From Candidatus Diapherotrites archaeon CG08_land_8_20_14_0_20_30_16 (lineage in GTDB: Archaea; Iainarchaeota; Iainarchaeia; Iainarchaeales; 0-14-0-20-30-16): 23,730 nt of DNA. How positions within the stretch are numbered: position 1 is the stretch's first letter; each line of letters opens with the position of its first letter. Under the pieces are notes generated by a model. The model was not told the DNA's origin, made no database searches, and worked only from the letters and a program-made list of their open reading frames with translations. This document shows, piece by piece, positions 4,408-22,586 of this stretch. The translations under genes were made by a program, and so were the position numbers. Where the stretch lies: assembly GCA_002779075.1 (NCBI GenBank), contig PEXK01000053.1, positions 1 through 23,730 on the forward strand, written 5' to 3'.

Positions 4408-9973
<5,566 letters not shown>

Positions 9974-21885: not shown

Positions 21886-22122
21886 GGTTTATCACCAGTT
21901 TTATCTGCAATTGAATTGCAACTAAAAGTTTTTGTTTTTCTAACTAAACTCAATTCTTTTATTTGTTTTCTTTAAATGTGAAATAGTTTTATTCTGTACT
22001 GATTATCAATAGAATATGTGACATATAGTATATCATAGTATTGAAAAGTGATTTTAAAAACATTGCTATTTTGTATCAAAACCTATATATTTAATAGGTT
22101 TAAGTACATTATGGCATTAAAA

Positions 22123-22397
22123 TGACCGGGGCGCGACTCGAACGCGCGATCTTCAACTTTCTCCCTATCCTTTTCTTTTTCACAAAAAGAAAAGCCTAAG
22201 TTTGCCAAAAGAAAAACTTAGGTTGCTTCGCAACTTGTTTCTTTGCGAAACCCCATATCAAAATGGCTCTGCAAGAGAGCTTTTGACAGGATGTAAAAGA
22301 TTTGTACCAACAGGTGCAAAATCTTCTACACTCTGCTTTCTTTACAAAGAAAGCGGTGGTAGGAGGTTGATGCCTTATCCAACTCGGCTACCCGGCC
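22123..22397 (-). tRNA. tRNA-Arg (anticodon CCU) interrupted by a 201-nt intron at the canonical 37/38 position
   Basis: Minus strand reads GGCCGGG TA GCCG AGTTGGATA AGGC A TCAAC CTCCTA [intron] A GTTGA AGATC GCGCG TTCGAGT CGCGC CCCGGTC A. The acceptor stem is 7 bp (one G-U) and the anticodon and T stems are 5 bp each. The GGATAAGGCA...CCTCCTAA pattern matches archaeal/eukaryal tRNA-Arg(CCU). No CCA is encoded, and a T-run follows the 3' end. Confidence 0.85.
22159..22359 (-). other. tRNA-Arg intron (201 nt), composed of six consecutive hairpins
   Basis: The boundaries follow from the cloverleaf. CTCC (nt 32-35) pairs with GGAG just 5' of the 3' junction, leaving 3-nt bulges UAC and AAA (BHB-like). 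The outer helix on the intron side is weak. Confidence 0.75.
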
Positions 22398-22400
22398 AAG

Positions 22401-22472
22401 TGCAAGGGCCGGGATTCGAACCCGGATCTAAAGCTTGGGAAGCTTCAATCCTAACCATTGGACGACCATTGC
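22401..22472 (-). tRNA. tRNA-Gly (anticodon CCC)
   Basis: Minus strand reads GCAATGG TC GTCC AATGGTTA GGAT T GAAGC TTCCCAA GCTTT AGAT CCGGG TTCGAAT CCCGG CCCTTGC A. The cloverleaf folds with one U5-C68 mismatch in the acceptor stem. It lies 3 nt upstream of tRNA-Arg. Confidence 0.85.
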
Positions 22473-22496
22473 TTAGGTAAATTTAGTAGAATAATA

Positions 22497-22505
22497 CTTT
22501 TAAAG
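22497..22505 (-). promoter_or_regulatory. Candidate TATA box for the tRNA-Gly/tRNA-Arg transcription unit
   Basis: CTTTAAAAG on the minus strand ends 24 nt upstream of tRNA-Gly position 1, consistent with an archaeal TATA centred near -27/-29. Confidence 0.35.
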
Positions 22506-22586
22506 GGTACTTATGCATATAATATATAAGAAAAACTCTATTTATTAGATTAACCAATATATACAATTATACTGTTTAGTGGTAAG

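Follow-up and report, generated by a model that had tools for sequence, protein, structure and literature searches.

A 201-nt hairpin-packed insert at position 37/38 of an archaeal tRNA-Arg(CCU) gene, probably an expanded protein-spliced intron

The tRNA-Arg(CCU) gene of an uncultured DPANN archaeon is interrupted between positions 37 and 38 by 201 nt that fold into six hairpins. The best explanation, with a probability of about 0.6, is a genuine archaeal tRNA intron spliced by proteins of the EndA/RtcB type, which has grown to its present length within the lineage. Archaeal tRNA introns measure 11–129 nt, with medians of 12–25 nt, in a 2014 review (PMC4090602), and none of ∼200 nt was found in the limited library of literature searched. 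With 201 nt, where the longest one reported had 129 nt, the intron is as unusual as had been claimed in the initial annotation of the window (the whole stretch of DNA analysed, 23,730 nt), and it raises the known upper limit for archaeal tRNA introns by about half. It looks like a length record, without a new mechanism or a new kind of element.

Transcription, cleavage, ligation and circularisation, as well as the reason for the hairpins, may be reconstructed as follows. The genes for tRNA-Gly(CCC) and tRNA-Arg(CCU) would be transcribed jointly from a TATA-type promoter, and the tRNA body would fold next. A 3-nt AAA bulge and a 4-bp CUCC/GGAG helix would extend the anticodon stem, and the other ∼190 nt would form six self-contained hairpins around one junction. 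These hairpins would keep the long insert off the tRNA fold and bring both splice sites together. EndA would then cut after A37 and before A38, an RtcB-type ligase would join the exons, and the intron would probably be circularised. The intron-side helix, still present in an 83-nt orthologue, has apparently been replaced by local hairpins in the 201-nt version. We infer that the hairpins were selected for compactness and stability, without a conserved trans-acting function. Counting against an expanded intron is the predicted location of the 5′ splice site in a seven-way junction, where a bulge is expected.

Host and assemblies

Genes of the window near that of tRNA-Arg encode deoxyhypusine synthase (DHS), GyrB, GyrA, a P-type ATPase and an M50 peptidase. 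DHS groups the window with MAGs of Woesearchaeota, Pacearchaeota and Nanoarchaeota, the best genome match being 63% identical. Judged by sequence, the host is a DPANN archaeon, a relative of the Woesearchaeota/Nanoarchaeota. The complete locus is found in three further assemblies (ENA ERZ27293347, JGI 3300025021 and JGI 3300025868) with an identical pre-tRNA, and a Logan contig (SRR5435972) covers exon 1 and runs 30 nt into the intron. One SNP distinguishes the assemblies in the 701-nt intergenic region, outside the tRNA. Because separate assemblies carry an identical pre-tRNA, an assembly artefact is ruled out; these copies represent one population and are uninformative on constraint.

Logan contigs of two relatives (L087:1-36 and L088:1-36) stop exactly at anticodon position 35 in exon 1 of tRNA-Arg, and a contig of the window organism (L003:1-68) stops 30 nt inside the intron. 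Such ends at tRNA-Arg suggest branching of the assembly graph, through intron variants or through a second Arg isoacceptor with the same 5′ half. In the same genome, the GyrA ORF (6311..9973 of the window, minus strand) contains an intein of ∼387 aa (approximately aa 120–507; Pfam Intein_splicing), which follows GQGNFG and ends in ...VHN↓S. The syntenic GyrA of the relative L084 (833 aa, with exteins 73–79% identical) has no intein.

Gene structure and tRNA identity

The features of the locus are compiled in Table 1. Coordinates and sizes of the exons and intron, as first annotated (38/201/36 nt), proved exact, and removal of the intron at 37/38 gives a spliced 74-mer that ARAGORN reads as tRNA-Arg(cct) with a textbook cloverleaf. 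The spliced tRNA has an acceptor stem of 7 bp, an anticodon stem of 5 bp and a T stem of 5 bp (G/C), together with G18G19, A20 and a variable loop of 5 nt.

Table 1. Features of the tRNA-Gly(CCC)/tRNA-Arg(CCU) locus in window coordinates (↓, splice site)
Feature	Position	Strand	Remarks
TATA-like box UUUAAAAG	22497..22504	minus	∼25–32 nt upstream of tRNA-Gly; read from sequence
tRNA-Gly(CCC), intron-less	22400..22472	minus	3 nt upstream of tRNA-Arg; ARAGORN and Rfam (59.2 bits)
tRNA-Arg(CCU) exon 1	22360..22397	minus	38 nt, tRNA positions 1–37; ARAGORN cloverleaf of spliced sequence; GGCCGGGTAGCCGAGTTGGATAAGGCATCAACCTCCTA (22397..22360)
CUCC, 5′ strand of 4-bp central helix	22362..22365	minus	tRNA positions 32–35; pairs with GGAG 22164..22161, probabilities 0.92–0.98
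UAC with 5′ splice site UA↓C	22359..22361	minus	no closed bulge; site in multiloop
Intron at canonical 37/38	22159..22359	minus	201 nt; removal restores tRNA
Hairpin 1	22335..22354	minus	GCUUUCUUU-GU-AAAGAAAGC, perfect 9-bp palindrome; in MFE, 8 bp with GUAA loop
Hairpin 2	22291..22331	minus	∼17 bp, 2 G–U pairs
Hairpin 3	22253..22290	minus	15 bp, two small bulges
Hairpin 4	22225..22251	minus	9 bp, alternatively two 5-bp mini-hairpins
Hairpin 5	22195..22222	minus	CCUAAGUUU/AAACUUAGG
Hairpin 6	22168..22194	minus	CUUUUCUUUUU/AAAAAGAAAAG, 11 perfect bp
GGAG, 3′ strand of central helix	22161..22164	minus	conserved in L084 intron
AAA bulge with 3′ splice site AA↓A	22158..22160	minus	3 nt, between central helix and anticodon stem; unpaired probability 1.0
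tRNA-Arg(CCU) exon 2	22123..22158	minus	36 nt, positions 38–73 including discriminator A; CCA not encoded; AGTTGAAGATCGCGCGTTCGAGTCGCGCCCCGGTCA (22158..22123), followed by U-run
U-run	22119..22122	minus	directly 3′ of discriminator base; read from sequence

The gene is absent from the default output of ARAGORN, in which tRNA-Gly alone is called. Rfam likewise reports tRNA-Gly alone at the gathering cut-off, and nothing credible for the Arg region at E ≤ 10. A tRNA-Arg(CCU) gene missed by both is a warning for annotation. With introns allowed, ARAGORN bore out the initial annotation in part: the same 201-nt gap was recovered, but shifted by 2 nt and labelled Ser(aga). That label was rejected, the molecule being a class I tRNA. 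Since a variable loop of 5 nt rules out tRNA-Ser, Arg(CCU) with an intron at 37/38 is the consistent reading. The idea that tRNAscan-SE misses introns of 201 nt was dropped, version 2.0 reporting introns of up to 323 nt (PMC8450103).

From its sequence, the TATA-like box would be the promoter of a Gly–Arg unit, and the two tRNAs are probably co-transcribed. The block that holds this box is conserved in the relatives L084–L088. The conserved block AATAATACTTTTAAAGRGTACTTATRCATATAATATATA (22473..22586 in the window; upstream of DHS in L084–L088) separates the divergent DHS gene from the tRNA genes, and probably carries archaeal TATA-type promoters of both. The U-run that follows the discriminator base would act as an archaeal terminator. 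Both tRNAs of the pair decode rare G-ending codons, their genes lie 3 nt apart and neither encodes CCA. Among the Arg codons of the window ORFs, 30 of 194 (15%) are AGG. With AGG a minor codon, the demand for its decoder tRNA-Arg(CCU) is low, and slow splicing of this tRNA may be tolerated.

Splice junction geometry

In the predicted ensemble, the anticodon stem UCAAC/GUUGA, the AAA bulge and the CUCC/GGAG helix occur with probabilities of 0.89–1.0. The h-B-H half of the splice motif is thus complete, with an exon helix, a 3-nt bulge containing the 3′ splice site and a 4-bp central helix. Each cut, AA↓A on the 3′ side and UA↓C on the 5′ side, falls 2 nt into the canonical bulge positions. The strict hBHBh′ motif is not formed in the 201-nt intron, the sole possible h′ pair (C40–G233) having a probability of 0.01; without this intron-side helix, the 5′ splice site falls within a multiloop. 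A relaxed bulge–helix–bulge (BHB) core, as described in the initial annotation, is therefore what the model returns: probabilities exceed 0.9 for CUCC/GGAG and the AAA bulge, and the intron-side outer helix is missing (0.01). On this model, the motif of the 201-nt intron belongs to the relaxed hBH/bulge-helix-loop (BHL) class.

Relaxed hBH, HBh′ and BHL motifs have been described for tRNA introns, and a BHL at 37/38 in full-length pre-tRNA is reportedly cleaved even by the α′2 enzyme of Archaeoglobus fulgidus (PMC6379350). DPANN EndAs with an L3 loop are associated with more disrupted tRNA genes (PMC5829648). A broad-specificity splicing endonuclease, once offered as a possible requirement of such a gene, is plausible but would not be compelled, because the A. 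fulgidus α′2 enzyme cuts a BHL at this very position. Genes for EndA and RtcB were found nowhere on the ∼42 kb of host genome examined. A BHL whose 5′ splice site is embedded in a junction is of modest mechanistic interest.

Folding and composition of the intron

All hairpins pointed out in the initial annotation exist. The minimum free energy (MFE) fold of the intron consists of six hairpins radiating off one junction, with 74 bp and 148 of the 201 nt paired. Its energy is −72.4 kcal/mol, compared with −46.9 ± 4.2 kcal/mol for dinucleotide shuffles (z = −6.1), and the whole pre-tRNA reaches z = −7.6 against such shuffles. Among 236 sliding windows of 201 nt (mean −28.9, sd 8.3 kcal/mol) the intron is the most stable, with a GC-corrected z of −5.0, and the three lowest values all come from the tRNA region. 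The GC content is 38% in the intron, 24% in intergenic DNA and 30% in the window. Because the stems are palindromic, the antisense strand of the intron also folds well (z = −7.1); the tRNA (sense) strand, with 5 G–U pairs, exceeds its antisense mirror structure in stability by 7 kcal/mol. The six hairpins were compared for traces of tandem duplication, and no similarity among them was detected. Hairpin 4 contains UUUCGCAAAG and GCGAAG, both of which occur in the L084 intron as well.

The structure raises the question of a function of its own. The excised 201-nt intron could be a functional, stable and probably circular RNA (a protein scaffold, decoy or regulator), for which the tRNA gene serves as an expression and processing cassette, as for the tRNA-Trp C/D-box sRNA and metazoan tricRNAs. 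In favour of such an RNA are the highest predicted stability in the window, a raised GC content, a bias towards the sense strand with its 5 G–U pairs, and a sequence identical in all assemblies that cover it. BHB-type excision is known to yield circular introns. Circular RNAs from tRNA introns are known as tricRNAs (PMC4536317). Against a function, the identical copies all come from one population and are silent on constraint, and conservation of the interior does not extend to the 83-nt orthologue, in a relative whose exons are 97% identical. C/D motifs are absent, in agreement with the initial annotation: the intron has no C box (RUGAUGA, ≤1 mismatch) and no D box (CUGA). A single-stranded ACA box follows none of the hairpins. 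Rfam 15 gives sub-threshold matches at chance level within the intron (E ≥ 0.2), and no family is recognized at E ≤ 10. A functional excised RNA, as suggested at the outset, is thus rather unlikely. Should the excised RNA turn out to be a stable circle, archaea would gain a new circular RNA.

A self-splicing group I intron was also considered. Such introns, of ∼200 nt, reportedly reside in the tRNA-Arg(CCU) of Agrobacterium and the tRNA-Ile of Azoarcus, so that tRNA species and length would be similar here. This candidate is effectively refuted. The intron has no match to Intron_gpI (RF00028) even at E ≤ 10, and its fold is made of independent hairpins, without a long-range core of the P3–P7 type. 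In the sole type of frame that gives a 7-nt anticodon loop, it ends in ...GGAGAA (or in ...GGAGA, with the frame 1 nt 5′), never in a terminal G. The archaeal host and the BHB-type junction likewise argue against group I.

Orthologous intron and evolution of the locus

An orthologous gene is present in L084, a JGI contig whose DHS is 80% identical and which keeps the synteny of gyrB, gyrA, AdoMet decarboxylase, HTH, M50 and DHS. At the corresponding place it carries a tRNA-Arg(CCU) with exons 97% identical to those of the window and with two differences, one compensatory acceptor pair (C3–G70 → U3–A70). Its intron, of 83 nt, also lies at 37/38 and agrees with the window intron in its first base and in its 3′ end, GGAGAA↓A. 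Folded alone it is structured (z = −4.05), and it can form the strict hBHBh′ motif at 1.8 kcal/mol above its MFE, whereas the window intron cannot. The label Ser(aga) given by ARAGORN to the L084 gene was corrected to Arg(CCU). Since L084 has the same tRNA, a same-site intron and a compensatory change, the intron is ancestral to a small clade and the tRNA is under purifying selection.

Inside the two introns, similarity is not significant: the score of the best local match, TTTCGCAAAG, was reached by 27 of 500 shuffles. In these two orthologous tRNA-Arg(CCU) introns (window and L084), length and sequence turn over quickly, and hairpin content persists. As an alternative, hairpin 1 could pair through its 5′ arm with the 3′ arm of hairpin 6, in a structure resembling the closing stem of the short intron. 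In a comparison of two sequences, this hints that the ancestral closing stem became two local hairpins and that h′ was lost in exchange. With near-identical exons, an 83-nt strict BHB and a 201-nt BHL provide a natural pair for the study of intron growth and BHB relaxation.

The orthologue also bears on whether the gene is active. In a pseudogene, the insert would be unspliceable, the 5′ half of the BHB being missing, and AGG would be read by tRNA-Arg(UCU) or by a second CCU copy. The absent helix h′, the minor status of AGG and the failure of default tRNA finders fit this proposal. Yet neither exon is damaged, and their identity to those of L084 is 97%, compared with 80% for the neighbouring protein; the sole difference in the acceptor stem is compensatory. 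The intron site, the 3′ junction motif, the promoter block and the U-run are all kept, and a BHL at 37/38 is a known substrate (PMC6379350). Inactivation by insertion, the outcome that the initial annotation had foreseen as a refutation, is very unlikely given the orthologous intron and the compensatory acceptor-stem change.

The extra ∼120 nt could alternatively be small palindromic mobile or insertion sequences (MITE-like, hairpin elements) that entered a pre-existing short intron and are harmless because they are spliced out. An orthologue of 83 nt, alike at its ends and different in its interior, which is longer in the window, would fit such insertions, as would near-perfect palindromic stems that fold on both strands (antisense z = −7.1). 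Selfish insertions do occur in the window genome, since its GyrA has an intein and that of L084 has none. Near-perfect palindromes could also arise by a DNA-level process (insertion of a palindromic element, template switching) without selection at the RNA level. A search of the window, the remainder of the 39.5-kb contig (L001) and 96 fetched loci, which covered ∼42 kb of the host genome, turned up no further copy of the intron or of a part of it, and neither did viral contigs, phages and plasmids (the latter two by blastn). Terminal inverted repeats or target-site duplications around a discrete insert are absent, and the hairpin modules have no detectable mutual similarity. On this search of ∼42 kb of the host genome, the hairpin-type mobile element suggested by the initial annotation is unlikely, and growth of an ordinary protein-spliced intron is preferred.

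Among the relatives examined, the orthologous intron was recovered from L084 alone. A DHS-anchored scan of genome contigs returned 80 DPANN loci with ≤63% identity, none with a tRNA-Arg nearby. The DHS relatives at 85%, 81% and 66% identity have no upstream tRNA-Arg or lie on contigs that are too short, and for the relative at 74% the contigs stop within exon 1. No tRNA-Arg lies near the neighbouring glycosylase in relatives with 74–88% identity. Pattern scans with exon 1 gave 0 matches in metagenome contigs, a collection evidently without samples carrying the locus, and viral contigs gave 0 matches to the exon pattern and 0 to hairpin 2. A Woesearchaeota MAG (L068:6069-6210, minus strand) has a tRNA-Asp(GUC) with a 69-nt intron of two hairpins at 37/38; ARAGORN, which placed this intron 4 nt too far 5′, had labelled it Ser(aga), and the label was corrected. 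Two other calls in intron mode, L049 (Ala, 235 nt) and L059 (297 nt, within the DHS gene), were discarded as false positives with poor cloverleaves.

Comparison with known tRNA introns

Archaeal EndA/BHB introns at 37/38, relaxed hBH/BHL forms included (Marck & Grosjean 2003; PMC4090602, PMC6379350), share their site with the window intron. As in these, a 4-bp helix joins positions 32–35 to the 3′ end of the intron, a 3-nt bulge with the 3′ splice site adjoins the anticodon stem, and removal gives a normal cloverleaf. The window intron differs in its 201 nt, in a 5′ site that lies in a multi-helix junction and in a body made of six local hairpins. The archaeal tRNA-Trp intron with a box C/D sRNA (Haloferax and others) is likewise long, structured and sited in the anticodon loop, and its excised circular form has its own function (PMC4090602). 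Unlike it, the window intron has no C, D, C′ or D′ boxes or guide architecture, and the orthologue does not share its interior.

As in eukaryotic pre-tRNA BHL introns, which rely on recognition of the mature domain, an anticodon–intron helix closes the bulge that contains the 3′ site, a loop contains the 5′ site, and the long intron could give a stable circle as in tricRNAs (PMC4536317); the host, in contrast, is an archaeon. Long introns predicted in eukaryotic tRNAs include 113 nt in Drosophila and 323 nt in C. elegans (PMC8450103). The window intron shares with the mobile introns of Thermoproteales a lineage-specific gain and turnover of tRNA intron sequence. The latter are reported to be transposed, with near-identical introns in several tRNA genes, whereas no second copy of the window intron was seen in a comparison of two tRNA genes of the genome.

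Sets of tRNAs in DPANN are reported as incomplete (PMC5829648), and in 208 complete Nanobdellota genomes order-specific ‘missing’ tRNAs emerge with tRNAscan-SE (bioRxiv 10.64898/2026.05.13.725050). Very long introns are one candidate cause of such missing DPANN/Nanobdellota tRNAs. In a bolder and rather improbable scenario, giant hairpin-packed tRNA introns would be a trait of Woesearchaeota-like DPANN lineages and the excised 201-nt RNA a very stable circle with its own role; separately, such introns might explain some of the Nanobdellota tRNAs reported missing by standard tools. If either the lineage trait or the account of missing tRNAs were true, the splicing enzyme would have to accept a 5′ site inside a multi-helix junction.

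Finally, the 3′ end of tRNA-Arg is repeated in L084 and not in the window. The direct repeat of 19 nt (AAATGATCGGGGCGCGACT, plus strand) occurs at L084:9620-9641 and L084:9722-9742, ∼85 nt apart, and looks like the att-site remnant of an element once integrated in tRNA-Arg. In L085, L086, L089–L093 and L095, whose flanking proteins are 66–88% identical, the tRNA-Gly/tRNA-Arg pair is variously kept, missing or rearranged. On these sequences, the locus appears to be a hotspot of rearrangement.
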